Part shown: in pieces, positions 6,512 through 51,690 of the stretch | Layout: the number at the start of each line of letters is the position of its first letter | Position numbering within the stretch: position 1 is the stretch's first letter | Source of the DNA: Parcubacteria group bacterium Gr01-1014_30 | GTDB taxonomy: Bacteria; Patescibacteriota; Minisyncoccia; Minisyncoccales; 2-12-FULL-40-12 | Assembly (NCBI GenBank): GCA_007376185.1 | Contig: VMFS01000003.1 | Location: forward strand, 25,983-89,982 | Direction of reading: 5' to 3' | DNA: 64,000 nt | The notes under the pieces: generated by a model | Told to the model about the DNA's origin: nothing | Databases searched by the model: none | The model's input: only the letters and a program-made list of their open reading frames with translations | Made by a program: the position numbers and the translations under genes

Positions 6512-7977
6512 GCACCTTCAAAGATGTTAAATCGTTTTTGTTTGACAATCTAAGCACGAGACAAACGATCTTTAAAAACACTTTTTGGCTTGGCCTTGCC
6601 GAGGGCTTTGGCAAGCTCTCTAAACTGGTTTTACTTATTTATGTCGCCAAAATCTTGGGAGCGACTGAGTACGGAAAGTTCAGTTTTGCTTTGGCCTTTG
6701 TCGGTTTGTTCGGAGTTGTGGCGAGTTTGGGATTGTCAAGAATAGTTGTGAGAGAGTTGGCGAGCGGCCAAGAAAAGGAAAAAGAAATTTCCTCCCTACT
6801 GTTTTTAAGAATTCTTTTGAGTTTGGTGGCGCTGGCTTTAATTTTGTCTGGCTCTTTCTTTGTTACTCAAGAACCTTTAATTAGAAAAGTAATTTGGATT
6901 TTGGGCCTATACTTTTTACTGGACACCTTTGCTTCTTTCTTAAACTTTTTCTTTCAGGCGCGCCAGAAAATGGAGTACGAATCATGGACGAGGATACTGC
7001 GCGCGCTGGCGCTGACGGGTCTTGGACTTTTCGTGATTTTCAGCTTTCCTTCCTTGGTGAATTTGAGCTACGCTTATCTGGCTGCCAGCTTAATCGCCCT
7101 AATTTTGGTCTTGATTTTTTTTCACATTAAAGTTGCAGCTTTATCTTTAAGTTTTAATAAATCAATTTGGCGGGATTACTTGGCAATGTCTTGGCCCCTG
7201 GCTTTATCGGCATTTTTCGCGATGGTTTACGGCCAAATTGACTCCGTAATTATGGGGTACTTAAATCAACTGACCCAAACCGGCTGGTATAACGCGGCTT
7301 ACAGGGTTGTCGGAGGCGTTTTGATTCCAATAGGCTTGGTTTCCACCAGTTTTTACCCGGCTTTGAGCAGGGCTTTCAAAGAATCGCGGGAAAAATTGCA
7401 AAAGATTTGGAATTATCAGTCAGAACTTATGCTCTTTTTGGCTCTGCCTATGACGGTGGGCGGCATAATTTTGGCCCCAAAAATAATTGATTTTATTTAT
7501 GACCAAACGTACGTTTCTTCGGTTTTGGCGTTTCAAATTTTGATTGTTATGGCAGGCATTGCCTTTTTGCAAAGTCCTTTCAGCAGTATGCTGTTGATTT
7601 TTAACCAGCAAACAAAGTTTTTATGGTCGGGGTTGCTAGGGGCCGCAGTAAACATTGGGCTTAACCTGTTTTTGATTCCTCGTTACAGCTTATACGGAGC
7701 GGCTTTGGCGGCTGTAATTACCGCCGCGGTGGTATTATTTCTTTACGTCTGGTTGACTTTGCGTTTTACTTCGGCAAGAATTTTTAATTTAAGATTTTTG
7801 GGGACAGGACTTTTAGCCGCTCTCTCAACGCTGATAATGTATTTTGTCATTACAATTCCCGGAGTTTACAATCTTAACGTTGTTTTTTCAATAATCATCG
7901 GAGCCCTTATTTATTTTGCGGTATTTTTCGCCGCGAAGTTCACGCTGGGTTACACGAAACCGTTTTTTAGAATATGA
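6502..7977 (+). CDS. Wzx-type polysaccharide flippase (MOP superfamily)
   Basis: ~490 aa with ~12-14 TM helices. N-terminal FKNTFWLGLAEGFGKLSKLVLLIYVAKILG is typical of the polysaccharide biosynthesis protein family. Confidence 0.7.
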   Translation: MPISTFKDVKSFLFDNLSTRQTIFKNTFWLGLAEGFGKLSKLVLLIYVAKILGATEYGKFSFALAFVGLFGVVASLGLSRIVVRELASGQEKEKEISSLLFLRILLSLVALALILSGSFFVTQEPLIRKVIWILGLYFLLDTFASFLNFFFQARQKMEYESWTRILRALALTGLGLFVIFSFPSLVNLSYAYLAASLIALILVLIFFHIKVAALSLSFNKSIWRDYLAMSWPLALSAFFAMVYGQIDSVIMGYLNQLTQTGWYNAAYRVVGGVLIPIGLVSTSFYPALSRAFKESREKLQKIWNYQSELMLFLALPMTVGGIILAPKIIDFIYDQTYVSSVLAFQILIVMAGIAFLQSPFSSMLLIFNQQTKFLWSGLLGAAVNIGLNLFLIPRYSLYGAALAAVITAAVVLFLYVWLTLRFTSARIFNLRFLGTGLLAALSTLIMYFVITIPGVYNLNVVFSIIIGALIYFAVFFAAKFTLGYTKPFFRI

Positions 7978-8780
7978 GCCAAGCAAGTCAACAAAAAATT
8001 GGCGTAGCTGGAGTGGGTTATGTGGGAGGAGCGGTAAAGCATTGGTTTGAAACTCAAGGCCTGCCTTTGTTTTTATATGACAAAGGCAAGGGCGTTGGCT
8101 CTCTTGAGGAATTGAATAAAGCAGAAGTCGTGTTTTTGTGCCTGCCTACGCCTTTTGATGAAAAGAGCGGATTCAGCGACTCGGCTATTTGGGAAGTACT
8201 GAAAGGTCTTGAAGGAGAGAAGGTTGTAGTTGTTAAATCCACTGTTCTGCCCGGCTCCACCGATAAGTACCAGGCAAGCTTTCCCCAGCATAAAATTTTG
8301 TTCAACCCCGAGTTTTTGACCGAGAAAAACGCAAATCAGGACTTCATCAATCCCAAAAGACAACTGGTCGGCTACACAAAAGAGAGCACGCAAGAAGCTG
8401 AAAAAGTTATGGCCTTTTTGCCCAAAGCTCACTTTCAAAGAATTATGGAAGCAAAGGCGGCTGAAATGGTTAAGTATTTTGGGAACTTATTTTTGGCTAA
8501 CAGAGTTATTTTCGCTAACCAAATGTATGATGTATGCGAGAAATTAGGTATTGATTATGACGCGGTCAAAGAAGCAGCAGGCGAGGATTCAAGAGTTGGC
8601 AATAGCCATTTCGACGTGTTTTCAGACGGTTATCGCGGATACTCAAGATCATGCCTGCCAAAGGACACCAAGGCCTTTATACAATTAGCCGAAAGTTTGG
8701 GTTTGAATCCAAGATTGCTTAAAACAATTGACGAGGTTAACGAAAGATTTATTTTTGGCGACAAAAACTATGAATGGTAA
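7974..8780 (+). CDS. UDP-glucose/GDP-mannose dehydrogenase family protein (short form)
   Basis: IGVAGVGYVGGAV NAD motif. FNPEFLTEKNA central motif. No C-terminal UDP-binding domain. Confidence 0.55.
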   Translation: MSQASQQKIGVAGVGYVGGAVKHWFETQGLPLFLYDKGKGVGSLEELNKAEVVFLCLPTPFDEKSGFSDSAIWEVLKGLEGEKVVVVKSTVLPGSTDKYQASFPQHKILFNPEFLTEKNANQDFINPKRQLVGYTKESTQEAEKVMAFLPKAHFQRIMEAKAAEMVKYFGNLFLANRVIFANQMYDVCEKLGIDYDAVKEAAGEDSRVGNSHFDVFSDGYRGYSRSCLPKDTKAFIQLAESLGLNPRLLKTIDEVNERFIFGDKNYEW

Positions 8781-15537: not shown

Positions 15538-16505
15538 CAAAGAGAGTTCTTATAACAGGAGGAGCTGGGTTTATTGGTTCTTATCTAACTGAGCGGCTCT
15601 TAAATCTTGGCTATAATGTATGGGTTATTGATAATCTTTCAGCTGGTTCTGCCAAGAATATCCAGCATCTACTGAAAAGACGCAATTTCCGCTTCGTTAA
15701 AGGGGAAATTTCAAACAAGCAACTCATGAAAAATCTGATGAAGCATACTACGAGGATTTGGCATCTTGCCGCAACCATGGGAGTTAGGCGGATAATGGAG
15801 CAACCTTTGGAATCTTTTAAGAATAACATTGAGAGCACCCACACGATTCTATCTTTAGCTGCAAATAAAAAGATACCAGTATTGATTACTTCTTCCTCAG
15901 AGGTCTACGGGAAGAATCCATATCTTCCTTTTGAAGAAAGCGCAGACAGAATTTATGGAAATATACAAAGCGCGAGATGGGGATATGCTTTGGCAAAAGC
16001 AGTTAATGAATTTCTTGCTTTGGGTTATCTCTGGCAAAAAAAACTTCCATGTATTATAGTACGGCTTTTTAATGTCATTGGGCCGCGTCAAACATCGGCT
16101 TCTGGGATGGTTGTGCCAACTTTCGTGCAGCAAGCCCTGTCTAGAAAGCCCATCACGGTATACGGTGATGGAACACAAACAAGATGTTTTGTAGATGTTG
16201 AAGACATTGTGAGCTCTCTAATTACGCTCATGGAAACAAAGAAAGCTTTTGGTGAAACCTTCGATGTGGGGTCCGACGAAGAGATTAAAATGATAGAGCT
16301 AGCGAGATTAGTAAAAAAATTAACAAAAAGCAGTTCAGACATTCTTTTGATACCCTATAAGAAAGTTTATAATTCTCCTTTTGAGGATGTCATGCGCAGC
16401 AAACCTAGTCTTACTAAAATTAGAAAGTTCATCAACTTTAAACCAAATTTTACCCTTAAGGAAAGTTTAAAAAAAATTATTGATTATGCGAAAACAAATT
16501 TCTAG
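15534..16505 (+). CDS. SDR sugar epimerase/dehydratase (UDP-glucuronate decarboxylase-like)
   Basis: VLITGGAGFIGSYL. SSSEVYG. YALAKAVNE (YxxxK). Confidence 0.7.
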   Translation: MTKRVLITGGAGFIGSYLTERLLNLGYNVWVIDNLSAGSAKNIQHLLKRRNFRFVKGEISNKQLMKNLMKHTTRIWHLAATMGVRRIMEQPLESFKNNIESTHTILSLAANKKIPVLITSSSEVYGKNPYLPFEESADRIYGNIQSARWGYALAKAVNEFLALGYLWQKKLPCIIVRLFNVIGPRQTSASGMVVPTFVQQALSRKPITVYGDGTQTRCFVDVEDIVSSLITLMETKKAFGETFDVGSDEEIKMIELARLVKKLTKSSSDILLIPYKKVYNSPFEDVMRSKPSLTKIRKFINFKPNFTLKESLKKIIDYAKTNF

Positions 16506-17670
16506 AAAAAACTCCCCCTCATTTTTGTTCATAGATCACGTGTATCCGCCTGCTTTGGATTATTTCAACTTGAATGACGATACAAAGAGCAATTATGAAG
16601 CAACTAAAAGGAAAATCTCTCAGCAGATACTAAACAGAGGTTCTCTTCTTGCGGTGAATTTTCAAAAGCTCGGGTATAGGGCGGATTCGATTATATTAAG
16701 TTGCGAACCGCTCCAGAAAAAATGGGCCAGAGAGCACGGCATCGGAATAACCTCCCTTCCCGTTCCCCATATTGCCAGGAAATCGTATTTTGTAAGGTCT
16801 ATTTTTTCAAAATTCCCAAAAATGTACTATTTTCTTAAAGGGTTAGCTGAGAAAAAAAGTTTTAATTTCCAGATTCTGCTTGCCCAAATTCAGGATTTCA
16901 AACCCGCCGTTTTGTTCATTCTTGACTTTCACCAATTTACTCCAGACTTTTTGGAAACAGCAAGAAAATATGTTGGGAAAATAGCGGCTTTCGTCAACGC
17001 TCCAATATATGCGCCAGCTGAATTATTTAAAAGTTACGACATTCTTTTTTCGCCTTTTCCTCACTACGTGGAAATGTTTCAGAAAATGGGAATTTCGTCC
17101 GCTTATCTTCCATTTAGTTTTGAGCCGATTATTTTGGAGGAAATTGGCAAAAAAGAAAGAATTGAGGACTGCGTTTTCATTGGCGGATTAAGCAGGGGCA
17201 TGGATAAAATCTCCTTTCTTGAAGAGCTTTCCCGAAAAATCAATGTGAAGTTCTGGGGATATATGAATCCGACTCTTCCTTCTGATTCGCCAATCCTGTC
17301 AACTTATAAAGGTCAAGCTTGGGGAATTGACGTATTGAAGATTTTGGCAAAAAGCAAGATTGTCGTGAACCGCCACGTTCAGAAACATGAAAATTTCTCC
17401 AGTAAATACGCAGATAATGTTCGACTTTATGAGTCAACGGGCATGGGAGCACTATTAATTACCGACTGGAAAGAGAATCTGGGAGAGTTATTTGAAATTG
17501 GGAAAGAAGTGGAGACGTACCGCACGAGCGAAGAAGCCGCAGAGAAGGTTAAATATTACCTTTCTCACGAGCGAGAAAGAGAAAAAATCGCCAAAGCAGG
17601 GCAAGCGCGAACGCTGCAGGACCATACCTATGAACAGCGAGCGAAAAAGATAATGGAAATTTTATCATGA
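16486..17670 (+). CDS. CgeB-like glycosyltransferase (GT-B C-terminal domain)
   Basis: C-terminal YESTGMGALLITD...EVETYRTSEEAAEKVKYYLSHEREREKIAKAGQARTLQDHTYEQRAKKIMEIL matches the CgeB/Glyco_trans_1_2 pattern. First ATG at 16486. Confidence 0.55.
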   Translation: MRKQISRKNSPSFLFIDHVYPPALDYFNLNDDTKSNYEATKRKISQQILNRGSLLAVNFQKLGYRADSIILSCEPLQKKWAREHGIGITSLPVPHIARKSYFVRSIFSKFPKMYYFLKGLAEKKSFNFQILLAQIQDFKPAVLFILDFHQFTPDFLETARKYVGKIAAFVNAPIYAPAELFKSYDILFSPFPHYVEMFQKMGISSAYLPFSFEPIILEEIGKKERIEDCVFIGGLSRGMDKISFLEELSRKINVKFWGYMNPTLPSDSPILSTYKGQAWGIDVLKILAKSKIVVNRHVQKHENFSSKYADNVRLYESTGMGALLITDWKENLGELFEIGKEVETYRTSEEAAEKVKYYLSHEREREKIAKAGQARTLQDHTYEQRAKKIMEILS

Positions 17671-18341
17671 TAAACCTTTTTGATCATCCATTTACAATCA
17701 CTACCTACAATGCCTTTCGGCGAAGATTTTTAATTGGGAAGGCAAAACTGCAGCGTCGAAATTTTGACGATTATATTTTTGGTTTGTGGGCAAAGAACTT
17801 TGGTGTAGCCCTAGATATTAATTGTTTGAAAAGGTTGGATACTATCTTGCAAAAAATGAAACCACGATCGATTTTTGAATTTGGCTCATGAGTTTCCACG
17901 GCAGTGCTTGCAAAGTATGCAGAAAACAACGATTGCACTATTACCGTAGTCGAAGATAGTTCTACTTATTTGGAGATTATGAAAAAAAATATTTCAACAA
18001 AGTATAAAAGTGATCACTTCACTTTTGTTTATGCGCCGAATCACTACAAGGATTATCTGGAAGCGAGTATCAATCCAGGAACGATGGATTTGGTGGTTAT
18101 CGATGGTCCTGATGGAGAAGAACATCGGCTATACAATAAGTTTTTCTATGAAAAGATTATTGGACCTGAAACTACATGCATTATTGATGATACAGACTAT
18201 TCTGCGCTCGATAGACTTGCGGAGGAGATTGCGCGCAGAAATTCGCTAAAGAAAATTGATTTTCGGGATGCGTTTTATAGTAAAGCACATCAATACTCAA
18301 TTCTCTTCCCGCAAACAGCAAACACCAAAGAAATAATATGA
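17667..18341 (+). pseudogene. Class I methyltransferase-like gene interrupted by a single in-frame TGA (17889-17891)
   Basis: ORFs 17667-17891 and 17904-18341 share one frame. The continuous reading is ...RSIFEFGS-TGA-VSTAVLAKYAE...DLVVIDGPDG. The stop sits where a Gly of an E-x-G-x-G-type SAM motif is expected. Confidence 0.5.
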
Positions 18342-19564
18342 AGATCCTTTTCGTGGCCGGAACAAACTTTGAGTTGTATTACCTGAGTTCAGTTGTTTAT
18401 CTTCTGCGATCGTATGACAAGTCGCTTGAGTTTAAGCTGTTTTTGCGCCGCAATTTCGCCAACAATATTACGCCTGAAGTCAGAAGTTTGTATTCAGAAA
18501 TAGAGCTTTTTCAAATTCCTGCTTTAACTCCGCCTCTAACTTGGAATCCCGCAAAGATGCTTTACAATATTTTTGAAAACTTTTACGACTATTTGGTTTA
18601 CAGAAATCAAATGAAAGAAAATCTTTCCAAAGTTGAAATTGCTTGCATATGCGGCATAAAAGAGTTTTTCGCCAACGTGTTGGCAAAACACGCCCCAAAG
18701 AACTTGCGCATAGTTGCTTTAAGGCTCGCCAACCAGCGGCTTGAGGAGACAAAGGAGTTTCGCAAGCGTCCTTTTCTTTCATTTTTATTAAATATTAAAA
18801 ACAGAATTTTTGGATATTCGCCAGTTGAATATAAATGGAGCTTTAAAGGAGGATTAGATCCCTTAACTAAAAACTTCGTCAGCTACCCTTACCATCGCAC
18901 AATATCCATTACCGATCATAACATTGGCAGAGAAGATTCTTTCTTCAGACTGCCGCCGCCATTTGTCGCATTAAAAAAACTATACAAAGGGGGTAGTAGA
19001 AGTTCGGCCGGACTTCGTCCGACTGATTCGCATTCGGCGAATGCCGAACTTTCACTACCCCCCAAACTCCAAGATCAAACTCCTGCCATTTTGCTGGCTG
19101 GCGATAAAACCCCGTTTTATGAAGGATGGGCCGAAAAGGACGAAAAAACATACGAGAGCGTTCTTGATTTTTTGAGAGAAAATTTTCCCAAGCACAAACT
19201 TTACTTCAAACCTAAGATAGGCAGGACAGATCCTTCCAAATACAATTTAGCCGGTTTTGAGCTTTTGTCACCTGACATTTCTTTGGAAGAGATTTGCTTG
19301 AGATATAACATTCAAAAAGTAATTTCCATAAGGTCAACGAGTTCAAAAGTAGGATCTTATTTTGGTATTCCAAGTTATATGCTTTACCCTTTGTTTCCCA
19401 TTCCCGAGCGGTTCAAAGAAGGCATTGAAAATGAGCACTACGATATGCGGTCGGTCGTTAGAGTTTCAAAACTTGAAGATATACTCTTTAAATCCGATAC
19501 ATTCATACAACAATATAACCTTGAAAAATTAGCAGAGCTCTATTGGCAAGCAATAGTTGAGTAA
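18338..19564 (+). CDS. Hypothetical glycan-cluster protein carrying an in-frame palindromic insert
   Basis: Long ORF with ATGA coupling to both neighbours. No recognisable motif by eye. Confidence 0.4.
   Translation: MKILFVAGTNFELYYLSSVVYLLRSYDKSLEFKLFLRRNFANNITPEVRSLYSEIELFQIPALTPPLTWNPAKMLYNIFENFYDYLVYRNQMKENLSKVEIACICGIKEFFANVLAKHAPKNLRIVALRLANQRLEETKEFRKRPFLSFLLNIKNRIFGYSPVEYKWSFKGGLDPLTKNFVSYPYHRTISITDHNIGREDSFFRLPPPFVALKKLYKGGSRSSAGLRPTDSHSANAELSLPPKLQDQTPAILLAGDKTPFYEGWAEKDEKTYESVLDFLRENFPKHKLYFKPKIGRTDPSKYNLAGFELLSPDISLEEICLRYNIQKVISIRSTSSKVGSYFGIPSYMLYPLFPIPERFKEGIENEHYDMRSVVRVSKLEDILFKSDTFIQQYNLEKLAELYWQAIVE
18989..19063 (+). repeat. In-frame GC-rich palindromic module (75 nt, 25 codons)
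   Basis: Outer arms gggggtagtagaagttcggc / gccgaactttcactacccccc (18/20). Inner hairpins cgga-cttcg-tccg and attcgc...gcgaat. Encodes GGSRSSAGLRPTDSHSANAELSLPP. Confidence 0.75.
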
Positions 19565-20635: not shown

Positions 20636-21396
20636 GTAGAAAATACCCGAAATTTATATATTTCCTATATAACTTCATAAACCCGATAATTAATCCTCAT
20701 CGGTTAGTAAAATTTATACCGGAATATCTTAATTTTTTTAAGAACTTGATTAAATATTTTAGAATGGGAGGGGCAGAAAAATTTAGTTTTTTTGATTTAA
20801 CCCCTTCTCTTTATGAGAGAACGCCAAGTTCGGGATTTGACCGCCATTATTTTTACCAAGACATCTGGGCTGCAAGAAGGATAATTAAAAGTCAGGTCAA
20901 ACGTCATATTGACGTTGGCTCTAGAGTGGATTTTGTGGGTTTTTTATCTGCGGTTTGCAAAGTAACTTTTGTTGACATTCGTCCTTTAGAAGTAAATTTA
21001 AAAAATTTTGAATCAGTGAAAGGCAATATTATATCTTTGCCTTTCAAAGATAATTCTATTCCATCACTTTCTTGCCTGCATGTAGCCGAACACATTGGAC
21101 TTGGCAGGTATGGAGACAAACTAGACCCCAAAGGGACAGAGAGGGCTTGCCGAGAACTTACCAGGGTTTTGGCGAAGGGAGGCAATTTATATTTTTCTTT
21201 GCCAGTTGGCAAACCAAAATTGTGTTTCAACGCGCACAGGATTCACTCGCCTGAACAAATTCTTCAGTATTTTAGCGGCTTAAAATTGGTTGAACTTTCA
21301 GGAGTTAATGACAAAGGCATATTCAGAGAAAAGATTGCCGTTGACCGGCTGAAAAATGAAAATTATGCCTGCGGCCTATTTTGGTTTAAAAAATGA
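20632..21396 (+). CDS. DUF268-like SAM-dependent methyltransferase
   Basis: LSCLHVAEHIGLGRYGDKLDPKGTERACRELTRVLAKGGNLYFSLPVG matches the DUF268 methyltransferase pattern. Confidence 0.55.
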   Translation: MSRKYPKFIYFLYNFINPIINPHRLVKFIPEYLNFFKNLIKYFRMGGAEKFSFFDLTPSLYERTPSSGFDRHYFYQDIWAARRIIKSQVKRHIDVGSRVDFVGFLSAVCKVTFVDIRPLEVNLKNFESVKGNIISLPFKDNSIPSLSCLHVAEHIGLGRYGDKLDPKGTERACRELTRVLAKGGNLYFSLPVGKPKLCFNAHRIHSPEQILQYFSGLKLVELSGVNDKGIFREKIAVDRLKNENYACGLFWFKK

Positions 21397-22883
21397 AGCA
21401 TCAGCTCAATGTTTTCAAAACGGAGTTAAGGGAAAGAGGTCTATTTTATGCTTTGAAAAAGGCAGTGCTTTATTTATTGCGGCCAATTACCGATTTAATG
21501 AAGACAAGCACATTTTTGGTAAACTTGCGGTATGGAGTTTTGCCTAATCTGTTATCAAAAATCACGTTTCATCAAGATAATCTGCTACTAAAACTCCCGC
21601 AAACCGATTTAGTTCGCGCCGTGCGGAACTTTTGGTATGGAAGTATTCTCGACAGGTTTGTTCTTGAAGGAGAGGAAATTAAAAAAGAAGAAATTTTTAC
21701 TTACGGAGGACCTAACCCCGAATTTAGTTGCCCAATTTGCCAAAAGGCAGAGTGGGTGTCAAGAATCAGACAAGAAAATTTATTTTTAGATCATTCTTGT
21801 CCAAGTTCTGAAAAATGCAGGAAATTGTGCGAAAAGCAAGGCAATGATTTATGGACTCACTTTCACCAGAATTTTGATTTTTCTTTGGGTTGCTCCGCTG
21901 ACTTGCCGGCTCCCAAAGGCGTTTACGTCCTTTTTGGGAAACTGGATATGTTTCACGCTCTTCGTTTGGAACCAATGGAGAGAATTTTTCATCGCCAATT
22001 TGCTTTTGCTTGTCAGCTTGATATAGCAGAAGGGCCTTTTGGCATTGACTGGAAAAAATATGATTTTATGTTTATGTATCTTCCGGGAGCCGTGCCCAAA
22101 TTTAAACGTCCACCAATTCCAGTAATTCTTTTCGCTCACGATTTTTGGCGAGAACCCAAAGCCAGTCAGTGGGTATTGGACTGGTTGGAGCCAGAGGTCT
22201 TTTTAACTACTTACCCAACTCAATTTAAAGAAAATTATCGTTTTCCAAAAAATACCAAAGTTGTATTTCACCCCATGTTTACGTCAAATTTCTTTACCAG
22301 ACCCAATCTTTCTCAAAAATCAATTGATTTGCTTTCAGTGGGGAACACCAAGGGGCCTCTTTATCAAGGAAGGAGAAACTTGAATATGCAATTGCAAAAA
22401 TTTAAAGAACAATACCCCTCATATAAACTTGAATTTTCGCACATTGTGGGCACTCTTAAGCCGAATGAGCAAGAGGGACTTGAATACACCGATTCTCAAG
22501 GCAACCAAATAAGATATTTAAATAAATGGTCAGAATACTTGGGAACTGCAAAATATGTTATTTTCGGCAAAATGAAATATCCTATTTTGGTCGGTAAATA
22601 TTACGAAACCTTGGGGTCTGGCGCCATACCCATTTTCCCTGAAGTGCCCGACTTGAAACTTTTGGGAGTAAAACCCTTTGAACACTATATTCCCTTAGCT
22701 GAAATTGAAGGAAATTCAGAAAGATTAAAATATTTTTTAGATAATTACGAAAAATTCAAGTATATTGGCAAAAATGCGGTAAAATGGTATAAAGATAATT
22801 CAGATAAGATGCTTTTTGCCGGTTTTGAGGGCTCAATTAGAGAAGTTACCAATTATAAATTTCCAAAAAGATTAGTTCGCTGA
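21393..22883 (+). CDS. Hypothetical protein with C-terminal GT-B-like (CgeB-type) region; its stop codon is supplied by a repeat module
   Basis: C-terminal KYYETLGSGAIPIFPEVPDL...FEHYIPL. The TGA at 22881-22883 lies inside gttcgctgaaacttcgtttcctctc. Confidence 0.4.
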   Translation: MKHQLNVFKTELRERGLFYALKKAVLYLLRPITDLMKTSTFLVNLRYGVLPNLLSKITFHQDNLLLKLPQTDLVRAVRNFWYGSILDRFVLEGEEIKKEEIFTYGGPNPEFSCPICQKAEWVSRIRQENLFLDHSCPSSEKCRKLCEKQGNDLWTHFHQNFDFSLGCSADLPAPKGVYVLFGKLDMFHALRLEPMERIFHRQFAFACQLDIAEGPFGIDWKKYDFMFMYLPGAVPKFKRPPIPVILFAHDFWREPKASQWVLDWLEPEVFLTTYPTQFKENYRFPKNTKVVFHPMFTSNFFTRPNLSQKSIDLLSVGNTKGPLYQGRRNLNMQLQKFKEQYPSYKLEFSHIVGTLKPNEQEGLEYTDSQGNQIRYLNKWSEYLGTAKYVIFGKMKYPILVGKYYETLGSGAIPIFPEVPDLKLLGVKPFEHYIPLAEIEGNSERLKYFLDNYEKFKYIGKNAVKWYKDNSDKMLFAGFEGSIREVTNYKFPKRLVR

Positions 22884-25162: not shown

Positions 25163-26284
25163 ATGAAATTCAAAAAAAAGAAAATTGCAATTGTCGCAGG
25201 CGCGAGACCAAACTTTGTGAAAATAGCGCAGCTAGTGTCTATTTTGCGAAAGCATAGGTTTTTTGACTATAAGCTTTTCCATACCGGCCAGCACTTTGAT
25301 TTTGAGATGTCGCAGGTTTTTTTTCAGGACTTAAAGATTCCAAAGCCGCATTTTAATCTTAATATTCGCTCAGGCAAGCATCCTTTTACCACGCAGATTG
25401 CCCTCATAAAGAAAAGACTCCAGGAGCATTTTAACAAAGAGCAGCCAGACCTTTGTTTAGTTTTTGGTGATGCAAACTCAGCAATCGGCGGAGCTCTGGC
25501 GGCTCATACTCTCGATATACCTGTTGGGCACATTGAAGCAGGTTTAAGGAGTTTTGACCGCACCATGTCAGAAGAATCAAATCGTTTAGTTACCGACCTT
25601 TTATCAAGATTTCTTTTTACGCATTCTGAAAGCGCCAACAAGAATCTTTCAAAAGAAGGACACTCAACTTCAAAAATGTTTTTTGTCGGCAATACTATGA
25701 TTGACGCTTTGGTGCGCCATAAAAAGGAAATTGCTAAGAGAAAGGTTGCTCAAAAGTTGGGATTTAAGCCAAAAGAATATGGAGTTCTTACCTTGCACCG
25801 CTATAACAACACAGATATCAAACCTGTATTAGATGATATTTTACAAGCAATCTTGATGATGCAAACAGAATTGCCTCTGGTATTCCCAATTCACCCTTCA
25901 ACCAAAGAAAGAATTTCTTTTTTCTCGCCTCACTTTTTTAAACAGTTAAAGTTTGCCAGAAATCTTCATATTTCAGAGCCCGTTGGGTATCTTGACTCCA
26001 TCTCGCTCTTAAAAGATGCAAAAATTGTCTTAACCGACTCTGGCGGCGTTCAAGAAGAAACAACTTTTCTTGGAGTTCCTTGTGTAACCCTGAGGCAAAA
26101 CACAGAGAGACCCATTACCGTGACAGCTGGCACCAACGTTATTGGAGGAATTACCAAAGACCAGATTCTTTCTGAATTCGGCGAGATGATGCAAAAGCCA
26201 AAAAAGAGGAAAAAAATTCCTCCTTTATGGGACGGTAAAGCTTCTCTAAGAATTGTAAGAGTTTTAGAGAAGAAGTTGTTATGA
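25163..26284 (+). CDS. wecB: UDP-N-acetylglucosamine 2-epimerase (non-hydrolysing)
   Basis: IVAGARPNFVKIA, GDANSAIGGALAA, HIEAGLRSFDRTMSEESNR, DSGGVQEE. Confidence 0.8.
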   Translation: MKFKKKKIAIVAGARPNFVKIAQLVSILRKHRFFDYKLFHTGQHFDFEMSQVFFQDLKIPKPHFNLNIRSGKHPFTTQIALIKKRLQEHFNKEQPDLCLVFGDANSAIGGALAAHTLDIPVGHIEAGLRSFDRTMSEESNRLVTDLLSRFLFTHSESANKNLSKEGHSTSKMFFVGNTMIDALVRHKKEIAKRKVAQKLGFKPKEYGVLTLHRYNNTDIKPVLDDILQAILMMQTELPLVFPIHPSTKERISFFSPHFFKQLKFARNLHISEPVGYLDSISLLKDAKIVLTDSGGVQEETTFLGVPCVTLRQNTERPITVTAGTNVIGGITKDQILSEFGEMMQKPKKRKKIPPLWDGKASLRIVRVLEKKLL

Positions 26285-27528
26285 AGAGGGTCTTAATCAT
26301 TTCTTATCATTTCCCTCCGGTGAACAATGTAAACGCGCGAAGATTTGGAGAGATGGCGCACCTTATGAGAGATTTTGGCTGGGAACCTTTTGTGGTTACT
26401 ACAAACAGCAAGGGGACTTTACCGCTGAAAATTTCAGAAAAGAATGTTATTAGAGTTGGCAAGAACTATTATAGCGAAGATGAATTAGTCGCAAAAGAAG
26501 GTTACAAAGGTGTTCCTTTATTTTTAAAGCTCCCATATTTTTTATACAGGGTTTTAAGAATGGAAATTTGGAGCTTAGATAGATTTATTTTTAGCTGGGG
26601 TAAAGAAGTTCGCAAGAAAAATGAGTTTATAAAGTTGCAAAGCCCAGATTTAATAATCGGAACTGGTTATCCTCCTGTTGGCATCTGGCTGGCAAAATTT
26701 TTTTCCAAAGAACTGAAAAAACCTTGGATCGCAGATCTTCATGATCCGCTTTCTCTTTGGAACAACTCCAAATTCTTACTTTGGCAACTTATTGATAGAA
26801 TAATTGACAAGAATCTTTTACAAAGCGCATCAGCGATAACAACACTTGGCAGAAAGTTAGCCAATCAAATGGGAAAACTTTACAAAAGAGATGTGAAGGT
26901 TATATATAACGGCTTCGAGGAAATAGATCAGGAAGATGAAGCGATAGAGGAAAATCCAAGGAAAGAAAAAATTTTATACTATGCCGGCCGTTTTCATGAA
27001 CACCGCATGAAAGCTGCTCGTTTGTTTATTGGATGGTTGTCGCAAAATAAGGAAGAGAATGTAAAGTTTACGTTAAGGTCGCTTGGGCCAAAAGAAGCAA
27101 ATGAGGAATTGCTTGAGTATGCTAAAGAAAAAAAGGTTTTAGACAAGATTGAGCTTTTACCTCCGGCTGACTTGAAAACCGTTTCACAAGAGGAAAGAAA
27201 AGCCGACGTCCTTTTGCTCTTTGAAGATTTAAAAAAAACTAGAAGGAATTTTGAAAGTACGCTACCTGCTAAACTTATGGAATATCTTGCCAAAGAAGCG
27301 CAAATTGTGGCCATTGCCAGGGGAGATTCTGAAATAGGCGAGATTTTAGCTGAGACAAAAAGGGGGTATCTTGTTTCAGATTTTTCACAACTTGGAGCGG
27401 TATTAAAAAAAATCTTTTCTGGAAACTTTCACCCTTTTCAAAAAAATCTTGTTGAAAAATATTCAAGGCGGAAGCAGTGCGAAATTTTATGTAAAATCTT
27501 TGATGATGTTTATGCAAGACACCATTGA
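26281..27528 (+). CDS. GT-B glycosyltransferase (GT4-like)
   Basis: N-terminal VLIISYHFPPVNNVNARRFGEMAHLM is typical of Glyco_trans_4-type N domains. ~415 aa. Confidence 0.55.
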   Translation: MKRVLIISYHFPPVNNVNARRFGEMAHLMRDFGWEPFVVTTNSKGTLPLKISEKNVIRVGKNYYSEDELVAKEGYKGVPLFLKLPYFLYRVLRMEIWSLDRFIFSWGKEVRKKNEFIKLQSPDLIIGTGYPPVGIWLAKFFSKELKKPWIADLHDPLSLWNNSKFLLWQLIDRIIDKNLLQSASAITTLGRKLANQMGKLYKRDVKVIYNGFEEIDQEDEAIEENPRKEKILYYAGRFHEHRMKAARLFIGWLSQNKEENVKFTLRSLGPKEANEELLEYAKEKKVLDKIELLPPADLKTVSQEERKADVLLLFEDLKKTRRNFESTLPAKLMEYLAKEAQIVAIARGDSEIGEILAETKRGYLVSDFSQLGAVLKKIFSGNFHPFQKNLVEKYSRRKQCEILCKIFDDVYARHH

Positions 27529-37441: not shown

Positions 37442-38782
37442 ATGGCGGACTTGAAAAAGATAATTTCACCAACTGCTTTATTAATTATTTTGGCGCTTAG
37501 CATAGGGCTGACTCCCAGTATTCCAGTTGGCACTCTGGAAGGCTTGGAACGGACAATTGACATTCGGGGAGAAGACATTTGGATTCTTGTCTTGTTTTTT
37601 TTCTGGCTGTCTGTTTTTCTCAAATCAAGGCAAGAGCAAATTGAAAAACCTCCTCTTTTTTTACCAATACTTTTCTGGTTAGGCGCAGGCCTGGTGAGTT
37701 TGTTAATTAACTTGTTTTTGGGGAATATTAATGTGCCGCGAGGAGTTTTTTACTTTGCCAAAGAGCTGCAGTTCTTTTTCGTTTACTTTTTCACTTTTTT
37801 CCATGTCAGAAGTTTAACCACCACGAATAAGCTTTTTCGCATTTGGCTTTTTGTGGCGTTGTTAAACATCGTTTGGGTGTTTTGGCAGATTTTCTTCATT
37901 GGCAGAAGGGGCGAATACGGCACTGCTGCTCTCAATGAATGGGGAGTTTTTCCAACCGGAGCTTTCTTTTTGATTTTGTTTATCTTCATCTTCAACTGGT
38001 GGCTACATGTTTACTGGAAGGCAGGTTTTCCGTTCAAGAAAAAGTACTTGTATCTTGGAGCGATTTTAATAATTATTGTGGGGATTCTTGGCGCTCTTTC
38101 CAAAACGGTTTTTATTGCTTTTTGGGTTGCTCTTTTGATAAGTATGATTTTGTACGTATTAAAGACGAAAACATTAAAAGATGCGTGGGCCTCTTTTTTG
38201 CTTTTTTTGACCGTGGGATTGTTTACCTTCGCCGCTTATCTTTCAGTAATACTGCCAAATCTCCCTGCCGCTGAGCGTTTAATGAAGATTTTTTCTTCTT
38301 CGGATTTGGCCGGGGACGTTCAACGAACACGTTTTGACGTTTCAGCGTTACAGCTTCAAGAAGCGCTTGAGCGGCCTTTAGAAATTTTGGGGCCTAAAGA
38401 AAGCATAGGGCCACTGGCAAACTTTTTGTTGGAAGTTTCAAAGTACGCTTTTGGCCGGGGCAAAGGAGCAATTTTGTTGGGTCCTGAGAGTCACAATCAC
38501 TATTTGCGAAATTTCATAGAAACCGGCATTATGGGGAGTTTGCTTTTTTTGACGCTCATGGTAGCTGTTCTGTATTTTGCGTGGAAAGGATTTAAAGACG
38601 CAAAAAACGCAGTTTCTGTCGGGCTTGCAGCTGGGCTCCTTGTAGCTACTCTGACAGTGCTTTTTATGTCAATCGTGGTTGACGCTTTCATAGTTGTTAA
38701 ACCCAACATGACCTATTGGTTTTTTGCGGGTTTGACAATGGCAACATTATACTATGGAAGAGCGCAAACAAAAGGAAATTGA
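37442..38782 (+). CDS. O-antigen polymerase/ligase-like (Wzy-type) membrane protein
   Basis: About 10 or more TM helices with a large late loop (GPESHNHYLRNFIETGIMG, ligase-type H..Y/N motif). Confidence 0.55.
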   Translation: MADLKKIISPTALLIILALSIGLTPSIPVGTLEGLERTIDIRGEDIWILVLFFFWLSVFLKSRQEQIEKPPLFLPILFWLGAGLVSLLINLFLGNINVPRGVFYFAKELQFFFVYFFTFFHVRSLTTTNKLFRIWLFVALLNIVWVFWQIFFIGRRGEYGTAALNEWGVFPTGAFFLILFIFIFNWWLHVYWKAGFPFKKKYLYLGAILIIIVGILGALSKTVFIAFWVALLISMILYVLKTKTLKDAWASFLLFLTVGLFTFAAYLSVILPNLPAAERLMKIFSSSDLAGDVQRTRFDVSALQLQEALERPLEILGPKESIGPLANFLLEVSKYAFGRGKGAILLGPESHNHYLRNFIETGIMGSLLFLTLMVAVLYFAWKGFKDAKNAVSVGLAAGLLVATLTVLFMSIVVDAFIVVKPNMTYWFFAGLTMATLYYGRAQTKGN

Positions 38783-41941: not shown

Positions 41942-42757
41942 GTGCCAACAGGAGTTTATAAAAGAACAAAATCAGCTTGGAATAAGGGCCATAAAACGGT
42001 TCACTCTTTTATTTGCCAAACATGTAATCAAGAATTCTTTTCTGAAAGGACAAAAGCAAAATTTTGCAAACGCTCTTGTATAAGAACAGATACACAATTT
42101 AAAAAAGGGCAAAAACCTTTGTATGCATTCTCCAAGGGCATCATTCCATGGAATAAAGGCAAGCGAGAACTTGTTAGAAGGATTTGCCCAACCTGCAAGA
42201 AAGAGTTTTCTTTCGTATTAACAGGTAAGGGAAGCAAAAAAAGAGGTCAGAAATTTTGTTCTGTGGCGTGTAACAGAAGTGATACACAATTTAAAAAAGG
42301 GCATACTTTGAAGCTAAGAATCCTTCATTCTGAAGTAACGAAGAAAAAGTTAAGCGAACTCGTTAAAGAAAGAACTGCTGCAGGAAAACATAATTTTGTT
42401 AAAGGCCATCAATTTGGATTTAAAAAAGGATCTGTCCCTTGGAATAAAGATAAAGATTTCGGCAGCACAGAATATCTTGCAAAAAGAATTTCGTGGTTAA
42501 CACTATATCGTGAATGGCGCCTATCAGTTAAAGAGAAAGATGGATTTAAATGTACAAACTGTGGGGGTAAAAATAATTTAAACGTTGATCATTATCCAGT
42601 TTCTTTAGCAGAGCTTATACGGAAATATAAAATTAAGAATCCACAGGAAACAAAAAAGCGTAGAGAATTTTGGGATATTAAGAATGGTAGAATGCTTTGC
42701 GTTTCGTGTCATAAACAGACACCAACATATGGGAAAAACTTTGTGCGAAAAGTGTAA
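41942..42757 (+). CDS. HNH-type homing endonuclease-like protein (GTG start) inserted within the transketolase gene
   Basis: Repeated zinc-ribbon/NUMOD-like units (FCKRSCIRTDTQFKKGQKP, FCSVACNRSDTQFKKGHT, PWNKGK). C-terminal KCTNCGG...NLNVDHYPVS...MLCVSCH. Confidence 0.6.
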   Translation: MPTGVYKRTKSAWNKGHKTVHSFICQTCNQEFFSERTKAKFCKRSCIRTDTQFKKGQKPLYAFSKGIIPWNKGKRELVRRICPTCKKEFSFVLTGKGSKKRGQKFCSVACNRSDTQFKKGHTLKLRILHSEVTKKKLSELVKERTAAGKHNFVKGHQFGFKKGSVPWNKDKDFGSTEYLAKRISWLTLYREWRLSVKEKDGFKCTNCGGKNNLNVDHYPVSLAELIRKYKIKNPQETKKRREFWDIKNGRMLCVSCHKQTPTYGKNFVRKV

Positions 42758-43874: not shown

Positions 43875-44006
43875 CTCTAATATAGGCCGACTCAAATCGG
43901 CTTCTTCTCAATGTCGTACAGTTCAAGATAATCTTGGTAAGATGAGAGGGCCGGCCCCGCGGAAACGCTTTCCACACCTTCCACCAAAGGAAGACGCTTG
44001 GCTTCG

Positions 44007-44666
44007 TCAAAGCCGTAAGCTAGGAAAAACTTCTGGCAGAACCCTGTCGTTCCCGAAAGCGGTCTTGGTGCCGCTTTCTATCATCTCGTCAAGAGAGGTG
44101 ATGAGAGTAATGGACTCGTTGGAAAGGTTGCCGTAATTCGTCTGCAAACGATGCAACGTTGCCCAGCGATTTTTATCAAGGGGCATGCACCAATAAGCGG
44201 AAAGAAAGATGAACCCCTCCCGTTTGTTGTCGGGATCGGCCGCGTCAAGGGCGGCCTTGCTAACCGTGTTCAAGAACGTGCCAAAGGGAACGCAGTTTGC
44301 GCAAATGATGCGTTTAATCTCTTTAAGCATCACCCGGTGTCTATGAGATACGGGTCGGTTCAAAGCCGGCGTCATGGAAAAGATTTCCTGGGGCGCGTGT
44401 CCCAAAGCCGCAAGTTCCGCAGTTGAGACCGCGGTCTTCTCCAACGAAAGCTCTTCTTGAAGCTCTCGGCGGAAGGTGTTAAGGGGTCCGCTGTCGGTTC
44501 TGGCCGACTCCCCAATCCAGTTTCCTCCAATAAAGTTGAGTTGATGTCTGAATAACTTGATGGGGAAATCACCAGTTTTGCGTTCAAGGAAGATGCGATT
44601 AGGGTTAATTCTGGGATAAATGATTCCAACACTGCCAATGTGCGAAATCCGAGGTCTTTTTTCCAT
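44007..44666 (-). CDS. Hypothetical protein, possible divergent Nudix fold
   Basis: GGNWIGE...FRRELQEEL loosely resembles an expanded Nudix box. Weak. Confidence 0.3.
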   Translation of the reverse strand: MEKRPRISHIGSVGIIYPRINPNRIFLERKTGDFPIKLFRHQLNFIGGNWIGESARTDSGPLNTFRRELQEELSLEKTAVSTAELAALGHAPQEIFSMTPALNRPVSHRHRVMLKEIKRIICANCVPFGTFLNTVSKAALDAADPDNKREGFIFLSAYWCMPLDKNRWATLHRLQTNYGNLSNESITLITSLDEMIESGTKTAFGNDRVLPEVFPSLRL

Positions 44667-44719
44667 TTCTCCTCCTTCCGTTTCTGGAATTCCTGAATAT
44701 TCACCTAATAAGAGCTTTA

Positions 44720-45091
44720 GGGGACAGGACTCAAACTAGAGTCACCTTGAGAAGCGAAAAAAATGAGATGATTTCAAGGCGCAACGACGCAGGCGCACTA
44801 GCGAAAGCGGATGCGTCAAGGAGGAGCAACGCAGAAATCAGCCATCGAGCGTTAGCGAAGATAAGGAAGAGATTTATCTCTTCCGACATTTTTTCGCTTC
44901 CCCCAAGGGCGGGCAAATTAGGACAATCTTCTTCGTTGTTCCGATTCCTTCGGAATCGAGAATCCTCGACAGCTTCGCTGTCGGGACTCGTCGTTAGCGT
45001 ATCTCGTTCCGCAGATACGCTCAGCTCCTCGCGCCTATAATCTTGCCCTAATTCGCTCCGCTCAAGTGATTCTATCTTGAGTCCTATCCCC
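44720..45091. mobile_element. 372-bp non-coding MITE-like element with ~31-nt terminal inverted repeats
   Basis: Left end ggggacaggactcaaactagagtcaccttgag. Right end ctcaagtgattctatcttgagtcctatcccc. The interior is a chain of short hairpins (gattccttcggaatc, cgacagcttcgctgtcg, agcgtatctcgttccgcagatacgct) plus the gaagagatttatctcttc core. Confidence 0.6.
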
Positions 45092-45138
45092 TTGGGATAT
45101 TACTTGATTTTTGGACTAAGTCAAGATATGCTTTATAT

Positions 45139-46344
45139 ATGGAATACCGCATAAATTTTATAAACAACAGCTACCGCCGGTTTGCAAAGGCGCACAAAGA
45201 AGAGCTGATTTCGGCTTTTTGGGACTGTTTAGAAAGAGGGGCTTTGACCTTAAGAGAGGAGGTTTCTAAGTTTGAAGACAACTTGGCAAACTTTGTGGGC
45301 ACCAAATACGCAATAGGCGTTAACTCGGGCACAGACGCCTTGTTTTTATCTTGCAAGGCATTGGGAATAAAAGGAAACTGGAATTATCTCTTGGAAAGAG
45401 TGTATGCCGGAGAAATCACAATAGATGAGGCCAACAAATTGTTTGAGGGTGACGAACTAATTACGGTATCACACACTTTCATTGCCTCAATACAATGCAT
45501 TGTTAACTGTGGCGCCAAACCGGTGTTGGTTGATGTTGGCGAGAACGAATTGATGAATCCTGAACTCATTGAGCCGGCAATAACCGAGCGGACAAAAGCC
45601 ATTTTGCCAGTGCACTTTCACGGAAAGGTGTGCGATATGGACGCCATTTTGGACATAGCCGCTAAACATAATTTACACATTATTGAGGACGCGGCCCAGG
45701 CACTGGGTTCCTCTTATAAAGGTAAAATGGCAGGCAGTTTTGGAGACGCGGGGTGTTTCAGTTTTAACACGGCAAAGCTTTTGGGCGGTTTTGGCGATGG
45801 AGGAGGTATCGTTACAAACAGTAGAGATTTGTGCGAAAAACTTTATCTTTTGAGAAACCACTGGAATATGGCGCAAACGTCCGTAAGAATGTCCGATTTC
45901 CCCACGCCTGAAATTGTGCAGTGGGCGTGGAAGTCGCGGCTGGATAACGTGCAGGCCGCTTTGCTCAACGTCAAGTTCAAATACTACAGAGACCTTCTGG
46001 TCAGGCGCAAGCAGATTGCGGATATGTATTGCGAAGGATTGAAGGGCTTGCCTTTGAAACTGCCAAAGTATGGGGAAGGCGACGTGATTCAGGAATTTAT
46101 CGTGCGTATAGGAAATGAGGAGGAGCGGGAAAAGTTCAAGAAATTTATGGATGAAAAAGGCATTGAGGTTTTGATTCGCGAAACAACGCCAAATCACAAG
46201 GTGAAAAATTTGTACTTGGACCATTTTTCTTTGCCCGTGACCGAAAGCATTTCCAAGGACGCGGTAAGATTACCTACTTACCCTGAGCTTGAAGACAGCG
46301 AAGTGGATGAGATTATAGGGGCTATTAGAGAGTTCTATAAATAA
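45139..46344 (+). CDS. DegT/DnrJ/EryC1/StrS-family sugar aminotransferase
   Basis: GVNSGTDALFL. IIEDAAQALGS. SFNTAKLLGGFGDGGG (the Lys is present). Carries a ~35-aa insert (GNWNYLLERVYAGEITIDEANKLFEGDE). Confidence 0.8.
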   Translation: MEYRINFINNSYRRFAKAHKEELISAFWDCLERGALTLREEVSKFEDNLANFVGTKYAIGVNSGTDALFLSCKALGIKGNWNYLLERVYAGEITIDEANKLFEGDELITVSHTFIASIQCIVNCGAKPVLVDVGENELMNPELIEPAITERTKAILPVHFHGKVCDMDAILDIAAKHNLHIIEDAAQALGSSYKGKMAGSFGDAGCFSFNTAKLLGGFGDGGGIVTNSRDLCEKLYLLRNHWNMAQTSVRMSDFPTPEIVQWAWKSRLDNVQAALLNVKFKYYRDLLVRRKQIADMYCEGLKGLPLKLPKYGEGDVIQEFIVRIGNEEEREKFKKFMDEKGIEVLIRETTPNHKVKNLYLDHFSLPVTESISKDAVRLPTYPELEDSEVDEIIGAIREFYK

Positions 46345-46417
46345 ACCCCGTAATACAACTTCCAGCACGCTTCGCGTGCAAAATCGCTGAAAGCGACTGG
46401 AAGATGATATACGGGGT
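46345..46417 (+). repeat. Y-shaped structured repeat, copy 1 (candidate ncRNA / REP-like element)
   Basis: accccgta-atacaa-cttccag-[cacgc ttc gcgtg]-caaaa-[tcgct gaa agcga]-ctggaag-atgata-tacggggt. Confidence 0.7.
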
Positions 46418-46425
46418 AAATAAAC

Positions 46426-48309
46426 TTGTTTTCCGTTTCTAAAAAAATTTTCTTTGAAAATAGACCTTTAACAAAGTTGGCGTTTTTTACTTTGGCCGAC
46501 GCGGTCCTACTTGCTTTTTCGGTTCTCTTGGCTTTTTTGGTTAGATTTGAAGGCCAGATTCCACAAAGATATTATTTGAACATTTTGGGCATAATGCTTT
46601 TTGGCTGGGTTATTACTTTGCCTGTTTTTTATTTTTTTCGACTTTACCGTTTTACTTGGCGGTACGTCTCAACCCAGGAGCTGGTTCAGCTCGTTAAGGG
46701 CACAGCTCTCAGCTTTTTGTTGCTGACCGGAGTTTTTTTCGTTTTAAGAGACCTGACAATTTTTTCGGGATTTCCCAGATCAGCCCTTTTTATCACTTAC
46801 TTTTTTGTCTTCGTTTTGACGGGCGGCCTACGTTTTGCCAAGCGGCTTTGGCTGCAGCTTTCTCCTCTTGCTAAAATGGGATCTAAAGAGAGAATCTTGA
46901 TTGCGGGAGCTGGCGACGCAGGAGAGCTGATTTTGAGAAATATTTTAAACACAAAAAATCCCTACCAGGTTATCGGTTTTGTAGACGACTCGCATGCAAG
47001 ACAGGGAGTGTCTATACACGGCGTTGAGGTTTTTGGCAAAATCGCGGATATTCCGCGGATTGTAGTGAAAAAGAATATTGAAGGCTTGATTGTGGCTATG
47101 CCATCGGCCGACTCTAGAGCCATTCAAGAAGCCGTTCAAAAAGCAAGGGAAGCGGGGCTAAAAAAAATTAAGATAATTCCGCCGATTGAAGACGTATTTG
47201 CCGGCAAAGTTACTCTGGCGCAGCTGAGAGAAGTTCAAATGGAAGATTTGCTTTCCAGAGACGTTGTTTTGACCGACAGAAGGCCTATTGCAGAGTTCCT
47301 GAAAAACAAAGTTGTTCTGGTCACGGGAGCTGCCGGTTCCATAGGATCTGAACTATGTCGCCAGATAGCCCTTTTTGTTCCTTCTGCGTTAATTATGTTG
47401 GACCAGGACGAGACGGGTATTTTTAATATCGCAGAGGAACTAAAAGACCGTTTCCCCGACCTGAAAAGAGTCCCGCGGATTTGCGACATTGGCGATGAGG
47501 CAAAAATTGAAAGTATATTCTTGGAGTTTCGCCCTGCCGTTTTGTTTCACGCGGCGGCTTACAAGCACGTTCCTTTAATGGAGGAAAACTCAGACGAAGC
47601 CGTGAAAAACAACGTTTTTGGCACAAGAGTTGTGGCAGAGGCGGCTTTGAGAAACGGCGTGGACACCTTTGTGTACATAAGCACCGACAAAGCCGTAAAT
47701 CCGACGTCGGTGATGGGTGCGACAAAAAGGGTTGGCGAGATGATTTGTCAATCGTTGCAGGGACAAGGTAAAACAAAGTTTGCCTCGGTCAGATTCGGCA
47801 ACGTTTTGGACAGTCGGGGGAGCGTTATACCTGTTTTCCGTGAGAAAATCAAAAAGAGAGAACCGATCCAAGTAACCCATCCTGAAATGAAGCGTTATTT
47901 TATGATGACGTCGGAGGCATGCTTGCTGGTTTTGCAGGCAGGCGCCATGGGCAAAGGGGGTGAGGTTTTCGTTCTGGACATGGGTAATCCCATAAAAATT
48001 TTGGAACTGGCAAAAGAAATGATTAAATTGTCGGGCTTGGAACCCGACCGCGACATACCCATTGTTTTCACTGAGCCAAGACCCGGAGAAAAACTTTTTG
48101 AAGAGATAATGTCGGCTGAAGAGGGGACAATAGCTACTCAAAACCAAAAGATTTTCATAGCAAAACTGTCAGAAATTAACGGAAGTCAGTTAGAGCAAGG
48201 ACTGGAAAATTTAAAAAAAGAGGTATATAATGGCAAAAAAGAAGAGATAATCCAGGTTTTAAAAGAAGTTGTTCATAGTTACAAACCAAATGCCGTTTTC
48301 GCCGACTAA
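46426..48309 (+). CDS. Membrane-anchored nucleotide-sugar 4,6-dehydratase (CapD/PglF/WbpM family)
   Basis: Four N-terminal TM helices. VLVTGAAGSIGSELCRQI. YISTDKAVNPTSVMGATKR. Confidence 0.8.
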   Translation: MFSVSKKIFFENRPLTKLAFFTLADAVLLAFSVLLAFLVRFEGQIPQRYYLNILGIMLFGWVITLPVFYFFRLYRFTWRYVSTQELVQLVKGTALSFLLLTGVFFVLRDLTIFSGFPRSALFITYFFVFVLTGGLRFAKRLWLQLSPLAKMGSKERILIAGAGDAGELILRNILNTKNPYQVIGFVDDSHARQGVSIHGVEVFGKIADIPRIVVKKNIEGLIVAMPSADSRAIQEAVQKAREAGLKKIKIIPPIEDVFAGKVTLAQLREVQMEDLLSRDVVLTDRRPIAEFLKNKVVLVTGAAGSIGSELCRQIALFVPSALIMLDQDETGIFNIAEELKDRFPDLKRVPRICDIGDEAKIESIFLEFRPAVLFHAAAYKHVPLMEENSDEAVKNNVFGTRVVAEAALRNGVDTFVYISTDKAVNPTSVMGATKRVGEMICQSLQGQGKTKFASVRFGNVLDSRGSVIPVFREKIKKREPIQVTHPEMKRYFMMTSEACLLVLQAGAMGKGGEVFVLDMGNPIKILELAKEMIKLSGLEPDRDIPIVFTEPRPGEKLFEEIMSAEEGTIATQNQKIFIAKLSEINGSQLEQGLENLKKEVYNGKKEEIIQVLKEVVHSYKPNAVFAD

Positions 48310-50461: not shown

Positions 50462-50471
50462 AAAATACTTG

Positions 50472-50779
50472 ACCCCGCCCTTGAAAAGCTCCTCTTCTTT
50501 CTGTATGCACTACGTCTATGTTTTGAGAATGAACAACAAAAGAGCATATATTGGTTTCACCACTGACCTTAGAAAAAGAGTTCAAGAACATAAAACAGGC
50601 AAAGTATTTACAACTAGCAAATATCTCCCAGTTCGTCTTGTCTACTACGAATGCTACCTATCTAGGGATGATGCAGAAAGAAGAGAAAGAATGCTCAAAC
50701 GATATGGCAGCACGTGGTCTCATTTGATGCGGAGAATAACAAAAAGTTTCAGAGTATAAGAGCTTTTCAAGGGCGGGGT
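50472..50779. mobile_element. GIY-YIG gene cassette bracketed by a perfect 20-bp inverted repeat
   Basis: accccgcccttgaaaagctc at 50472-50491. Its exact reverse complement gagcttttcaagggcggggt is at 50760-50779. Confidence 0.65.
50505..50759 (+). CDS. Small GIY-YIG nuclease family protein (COG2827/UPF0213-like)
   Basis: MHYVYVLRMNNKRAYIGFTTDLRKRVQEHKTGK...LVYYECYLSRDDAERRERMLK. Confidence 0.75.
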   Translation: MHYVYVLRMNNKRAYIGFTTDLRKRVQEHKTGKVFTTSKYLPVRLVYYECYLSRDDAERRERMLKRYGSTWSHLMRRITKSFRV

Positions 50780-50807
50780 TGACAAATTCATTTCTTTTTG
50801 CTAAGCT
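50779..50807 (+). promoter_or_regulatory. Sigma70-like promoter TTGACA-17-TAAGCT
   Basis: TTGACA at 50779-50784 overlaps the outer edge of the right inverted repeat. TAAGCT at 50802-50807. Confidence 0.35.
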
Positions 50808-50813
50808 ACTATA

Positions 50814-51185: not shown

Positions 51186-51219
51186 TTTCTGGCTTATTTC
51201 AGCTTTGAGCTTGCGTAAA

Positions 51220-51654: not shown

Positions 51655-51690
51655 AGAACTATTTTTTACTTTATCAGATTTTCGTAATTT

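Follow-up and report, generated by a model that had tools for sequence, protein, structure and literature searches.

The window, by which we mean the whole 64,000-nucleotide stretch of DNA analysed here, carries a long cluster of glycan biosynthesis genes, co-directional and including Kdo-type sugar genes, and the interrupted gene described below sits inside it. The cluster encodes epimerases, dehydratases, a flippase-type Polysacc_synt protein, shikimate-dehydrogenase-like and GFO/IDH/MocA oxidoreductases, a DAHP_synth_1 (KdsA-type) synthase, a CTP_transf_3 (KdsB-type) cytidylyltransferase and several glycosyltransferases, in addition to further methyltransferases (Methyltransf_23, DUF268/Methyltransf_11, FkbM and others), Wzy_C-type proteins and an initiating Bac_transf sugar transferase. 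Immediately upstream of the interrupted gene, at 16486-17670 on the plus strand, lies a Glyco_trans_1_2 glycosyltransferase gene, and immediately downstream, at 18338-19564 on the same strand, a gene for a 408-aa protein with no Pfam match. The order of genes is much alike in relatives, running DAHP_synth_1, CTP_transf_3, Methyltransf_23, Glyco_trans_1_2, the methyltransferase, a protein of about 380-408 aa and a DUF268 methyltransferase; homologous loci L002 and L011 likewise have the Glyco_trans_1_2 gene upstream and a Pfam-less protein of about 380 aa at the equivalent downstream position.

Several other features of the cluster and its surroundings were recorded. Together with the downstream neighbour, the large cluster ORFs without a Pfam match at 21393-22883, 26281-27528 and 37442-38782 encode proteins of 408-496 aa that may be polymerases or glycosyltransferases not yet recognised as such. 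On either side of the cluster, at 43-2145 and 48269-50461, lie genes for two large Wzy_C (O-antigen ligase/polymerase-like) proteins fused to C-terminal TPR repeats. At 7974-8780 there is a short UDP-glucose/GDP-mannose dehydrogenase-like ORF of 268 aa, whose NAD-binding Pfam match begins at profile position 73 and whose C-terminal UDP-binding domain is absent; locus L002 has a similar 270-aa dehydrogenase-like product, and the ORF may be a conserved short paralog, not a fragment. In one homologous locus (L005, the contig of relative P0004), the Glyco_trans_1_2 region is called in three pieces of 115, 96 and 108 aa and the UDPG dehydrogenase in pieces of 212 and 74 aa; these split calls, at 109-922 and 6648-7816, point to a low-quality Logan contig or a decaying cluster. 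GC content is approximately 0.37-0.42 across the glycan cluster (1-44000) and 0.44-0.48 from 44000 to 64000, where MurB, GSDH and thioredoxin-like genes lie, and the lowest value belongs to an ORF without a Pfam match at 41942-42757 (GC 0.348, GC3 0.266).

The interrupted gene occupies 17667-18341 on the plus strand as a single frame of 224 sense codons, whose sole internal stop is a TGA at 17889-17891, codon 75. The local translation reads KPRSIFEFGS-stop-VSTAVLAKYAENNDCTITVVED...MDLVVIDGPDGEE...CIIDDTDY, with the residues IFEFGS and VSTAVLAKYAE flanking the stop. The first part of the frame, 17667-17891, is an ORF of 74 aa that would encode the N-terminal helices and strand beta-1 and ends at the premature TGA. 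The rest, 149 codons and a stop at 17892-18341, is still open and would encode the Rossmann core after beta-1, including the stretches for VVIDGPDG (18093-18116) and DDTDY (18186-18200); a mechanical search for ORFs finds in it one of 145 aa with a GTG start, 17904-18341. The initial annotation had described two ORFs that share one frame around a single TGA, and translation of 17667-18341 confirms this. A six-frame scan for TGA codons flanked in both directions by 60 or more sense codons returned 17889 as the only coding-strand site in the window, and two further matches, both on the minus strand, overlap plus-strand genes.

Each end of the gene is joined to its neighbour by an ATGA overlap. 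At 17667-17670 the methyltransferase start codon ATG overlaps the TGA that ends the glycosyltransferase gene upstream, and at 18338-18341 its natural TGA stop overlaps the start of the downstream gene. The internal stop also lies in an ATGA, and we considered a natural gene junction at ATG 17888; this was ruled out, as the frame opened there closes after 23 codons and the homologs are continuous. A fusion of two naturally separate genes was likewise ruled out, the gene being a regular single-gene member of the conserved cassette. Coupled starts are common in the region: over 30 gene starts between 4816 and 40595, the leaders are A/T-rich, many starts are coupled through ATGA overlaps, and no GGAGG-like Shine-Dalgarno sequence occurs in the 20 nt before any of them, which suggests, at the level of sequence, that initiation in this organism may be Shine-Dalgarno-independent.

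To compare the gene with its relatives, 5.8 billion proteins were searched with the joined product, carrying X at the stop position. Besides the 145-aa fragment from the window itself, the search returned ten relatives. Of these, eight are full-length (215-233 aa) and 43-58% identical to the query over 92-100% of its length, the best at 57-58%; full-length relatives are single proteins of about 200-235 aa with 40-59% identity, and the window frame is colinear with them. The remaining two are shorter: P0008 (200 aa) is missing some of the N-terminus, and P0011 (141 aa) represents the C-terminal portion of another copy that is interrupted. All nine homologs that cover the site have glycine in the column of the stop, and the alignment has no gap or other indel near it. 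The stretch E-F-G-S-stop-V-S-T, codons 71-78 (17877-17900), corresponds to motif I of the family, with consensus E-x-G-x-G-x-[ST]-[ST], and homologs carry variants such as FEFGSGVST, DVGSGVST and EAGGGIST. A profile search of 1.84 billion cluster representatives extended the family to 2312 relatives at E <= 1e-3, 16 of them at E <= 1e-30, and glycine occupies this position in 150 of the 151 family sequences that bear the motif, a count that leaves out one chance motif match in a neighbouring glycosyltransferase (P0014). The proposal that the stop replaces the second glycine of motif I is thus borne out, and the ortholog alignment that had been suggested as its check turned up no naturally two-gene orthologs, no residue other than glycine and no gap at the site. 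No relative of the window copy above 60% identity was found in the databases searched, its clusters have one member, and with the patterns used the family profile found no relative in GTDB representative genomes.

With glycine placed at the stop, the joined protein matches Pfam Methyltransf_24 over residues 71-176, a region that spans the stop (E = 5.3e-05), with a score of 24.5 bits, below the gathering cut-off of 26.3 bits. Precomputed matches to the same family (PF13578) are present on several homologs, and NCBIfam gave no meaningful match for the protein. An AlphaFold2 model of a close intact relative, P0003 (pLDDT 85.8, pTM 0.85), puts the motif-I glycine in the beta-1/alpha-A loop, which joins strand 63-67 to helix 71-82. 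Foldseek comparison of this model with the PDB finds COMT, caffeoyl-CoA O-methyltransferase and TrmR-type class I methyltransferases, the best at E of about 1e-8 and TM 0.6-0.67; nearly all of the top 50 PDB matches are such methyltransferases, at probability 1.00 and query-normalised TM 0.49-0.67. The Rossmann-like seven-strand alpha/beta fold of the class is therefore found on the homolog P0003, not on the window sequence. A sequence profile search of the PDB aligns the motif, weakly (E = 0.003-0.1), with the GxGxG of spermidine synthase and O-methyltransferases.

The family shares with the COMT and caffeoyl-CoA O-methyltransferase group (Methyltransf_24, PF13578; PDB 3ntv, 3tfw, 1jr4 and 5zw3) the fold of the P0003 model, motif I in the beta-1/alpha-A loop with the pattern E-x-G-x-G-x-S-T, an acidic residue after beta-2, conserved Asp-rich motifs IIDGP and IDDTDR and a size of about 220 aa. 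The acidic post-motif DLVVIDGPDG that had been noted in the second ORF is indeed present, and its residues I145, D146, G147 and P148 are invariant in the family. Unlike the COMT-type proteins of known structure, to which sequence identity is only 12-17%, the window copy is broken in motif I, where the codon for the second glycine of the homologs' EFGSGVST is TGA, carries R178Y and scores below threshold against Methyltransf_24. From these sequence comparisons and the homolog model, we conclude that the region is one gene for a putative small COMT-like class I SAM-dependent methyltransferase, which presumably acts on a sugar of the glycan cluster, and that the family is uncharacterised and related to Pfam Methyltransf_24 only remotely.

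The glycine codon itself could be read at ten homologous loci, where it is GGA in five, GGG in three, GGT in one and GGC in one, and TGA in none. The closest relative (P0002, at locus L004) has GGA, and the window sequence TCA TGA GTT stands against TCA GGA followed by GTT or ATA in relatives. Because the relatives have GGN and never TGA, one G-to-T change explains the stop, and the ancestral codon was most likely GGA, as judged from these distant homologs. A recent GGA-to-TGA nonsense mutation, the first of three explanations offered at the outset, is therefore supported by GGA in five of ten loci, by intact orthologs and by the sufficiency of one substitution. The locus has the usual marks of a pseudogene, namely orthologs that run without interruption, a stop one substitution away from a sense codon and a truncated product without essential parts. 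We consider it very probable that the stop is a real and recent nonsense mutation, and that it has left the gene a pseudogene of recent origin or a null allele at strain level.

The remainder of the gene has changed little. Of 55 columns invariant in the other full-length relatives, the window copy keeps 49, the stop being one of its six departures. Length, frame, most conserved residues and both ATGA junctions are intact, and the event therefore appears to be recent. Another departure is R178Y: the window copy has DDTDY where the family has DDTxR, with a near-invariant arginine that is final in the large majority of about 100 motif-matched sequences; two or more base changes are required for it, and it may reflect relaxed constraint on the interrupted gene. 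The conservation pattern as a whole is consistent with a loss of function in the recent past, with constraint perhaps relaxed a little, and gives no date. That the 224 codons show no other lesion is also compatible with continued expression of the gene in some form.

A single base is involved, and the window derives from a metagenome assembly (ENA ERZ27284378, contig k139_45045), both of which leave room for a sequencing or consensus error, with GGA in the true genome and the T at 17889 an artefact. G-to-T changes are typical oxidative-damage errors in library preparation; such errors are of low frequency, however, and should not win a consensus. The site lies outside any homopolymer, and no second interrupted gene was found among the 63 ORFs tabulated in the window. 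Identical 74-aa and 145-aa products also appear in records from three sources, ENA, NCBI and a separately produced Logan assembly, which speaks against an artefact of one assembler, though the underlying reads may be the same. An error at this base is, on this evidence, unlikely.

The meaning of TGA in this organism is apparent from the rest of the window. The 63 ORFs end in TGA 25 times, in TAA 30 times and in TAG 8 times, and ATGA overlaps with the following start account for at least 12 of the TGA stops, in agreement with the initial annotation, which had taken TGA to be a terminator elsewhere in the window. A second explanation offered there was that the gene came from a donor with genetic code 25, in which UGA is read as glycine (Gracilibacteria/Absconditabacteria), the TGA being a relic of the donor code. 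The stop does fall exactly at a glycine, as code 25 would have it at a position where the family requires one. Code-25 organisms would also be phylogenetic neighbours, given that the MurB protein encoded in the window is most similar to CPR/Patescibacteria proteins. Its matches in GTDB representative genomes are distant (35-43% identity; three of four from CPR/Patescibacteria), the nearest being Levybacteria and Saccharibacteria proteins at 41-43% identity, which is weak evidence for placement.

The gene and its relatives nevertheless speak against such a relic. Under code 25, UGA never terminates and is frequent at glycine positions, whereas here the coding frames of the window contain one in-frame TGA, a single codon of about 20,000, and UGA is an ordinary end of genes. 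Glycine is never encoded by TGA at the ten homologous loci, whose contigs, too, end genes in TGA or ATGA, and the nearest hits already suggest that this copy belongs among code-11 relatives. The other eight glycine codons of the gene are GGN, its composition (GC 0.367, GC3 0.344) matches that of adjacent genes (GC 0.365-0.40), and its gene order is common to relatives that use code 11. The GGN codons of the ten loci, the matching composition and the conserved synteny leave the proposal of a UGA=Gly donor unsupported; on composition and synteny, a foreign origin of the gene was rejected more generally. A single GGA-to-TGA step is simpler, and even a gene with such a history would still be a pseudogene in this host. 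A relic of code 25 is thus highly improbable.

The third explanation, local readthrough, found no positive evidence. Around and after the TGA, the predicted RNA fold (81 nt, 17880-17960) is no better than that of shuffled sequences (z = +0.48); nothing in the window matches Rfam at gathering thresholds, and the local matches are at chance level. Within the family set from the profile search, no other fragment starts or stops at the codon-75 site. The same results bear on the possibility that the gene is partly functional, either through low-level UGA readthrough or through reinitiation at the GTG at 17904, which would give a complementing C-terminal fragment. This reading can draw on a frame that is otherwise fully open and keeps most conserved residues, on the position of that GTG, in frame 13 nt past the stop, and on UGA being the leakiest of the bacterial stop codons. 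Against it, in addition to the lack of structure or a known recoding element after the stop and of any family member split at this site, the stop stands in the context UGA-G, reportedly a comparatively strong UGA signal in E. coli (Poole et al. 1995). Near-cognate readthrough of UGA inserts tryptophan, a bulky residue that is unlikely to be tolerated where nearly every family member has glycine, and a fragment started at 17904 would be without G75-A79 of the SAM loop. We regard residual function as improbable.

Selenocysteine insertion or another programmed recoding event at the UGA might be entertained on the sole grounds that the codon is UGA and in frame. The homologs have glycine, not cysteine, at the site, and the folding and Rfam results above provide no SECIS-like hairpin, so that we give this reading almost no credence. 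Very unlikely, too, is that the UGA is usefully decoded, by a UCA-tRNA for glycine or as a leaky stop, in an organism in which UGA is stop, or, in a milder version, that nonsense alleles of this gene recur from selected loss of the methyl group. No tRNA gene was found within the 64-kb window. If useful decoding of UGA were true, a CPR bacterium with code 11 would be a living intermediate towards the UGA=Gly code of its relatives.

A second interrupted copy in the family permits a direct comparison. At the locus of P0011 (L011, the same as L013; JGI Ga0114923_10019365), an in-frame TGA occurs elsewhere in the gene, in YIFKL-stop-DKNFG, at a conserved tryptophan (W41); it is the one internal stop among the homologous loci. 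The corresponding contig from a different JGI metagenome (L012, Ga0209976_10013286) agrees with L013 at 3532 of 3535 shared bases (99.9%) and has TGG at that codon, which lies at 611-613 in L012 and at 1674-1676 in L013; apart from this, the two differ by one Val/Ile substitution and one synonymous change. By this contig comparison, L013 carries a plain strain-level TGG-to-TGA nonsense allele, independent of that in the window. Since one TGA stands at a glycine and the other at a tryptophan, in-frame TGAs in the family share no single decoding rule, and the parallel null allele together with the lack of a common rule favours mutation over recoding. These two independent cases indicate that null alleles of this methyltransferase occur in natural populations, and they fit a general pattern in which accessory genes for surface-glycan modification are easily lost.

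In the nonsense-mutation reading, a G-to-T transversion at 17889 would have turned the codon for the second glycine of the SAM loop, likely GGA, into TGA. As TGA is an ordinary stop in this organism, translation should end after 74 residues, and the product would stop short of the nucleotide-binding loop and the whole Rossmann core, so that no active enzyme would be made. The resulting null state could be that of a young pseudogene or of an allele found in whichever strain dominates the sample. The glycan would then be made without one methyl group, and the coupled downstream gene might possibly be translated less. Interruption of an accessory surface-glycan gene by one nonsense mutation is a well-known phenomenon. 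The locus resembles nonsense pseudogenes and null alleles of surface-polysaccharide clusters of the O-antigen or capsule type, in which one point mutation interrupts an otherwise intact accessory glycan-modification gene; unlike those cases, it belongs to an uncultured bacterium, probably of the CPR/Patescibacteria, and is seen here from metagenome assemblies alone.

For annotation, the ORFs of 74 and 145 aa should be merged into a single disrupted methyltransferase gene instead of being listed as two hypothetical proteins, and the case should not be cited in support of codon reassignment or recoding. Beyond annotation the interruption itself matters little. What the locus does document is an uncharacterised subfamily of COMT-like methyltransferases that travels with Kdo-type sugar genes in the glycan clusters of uncultured bacteria.
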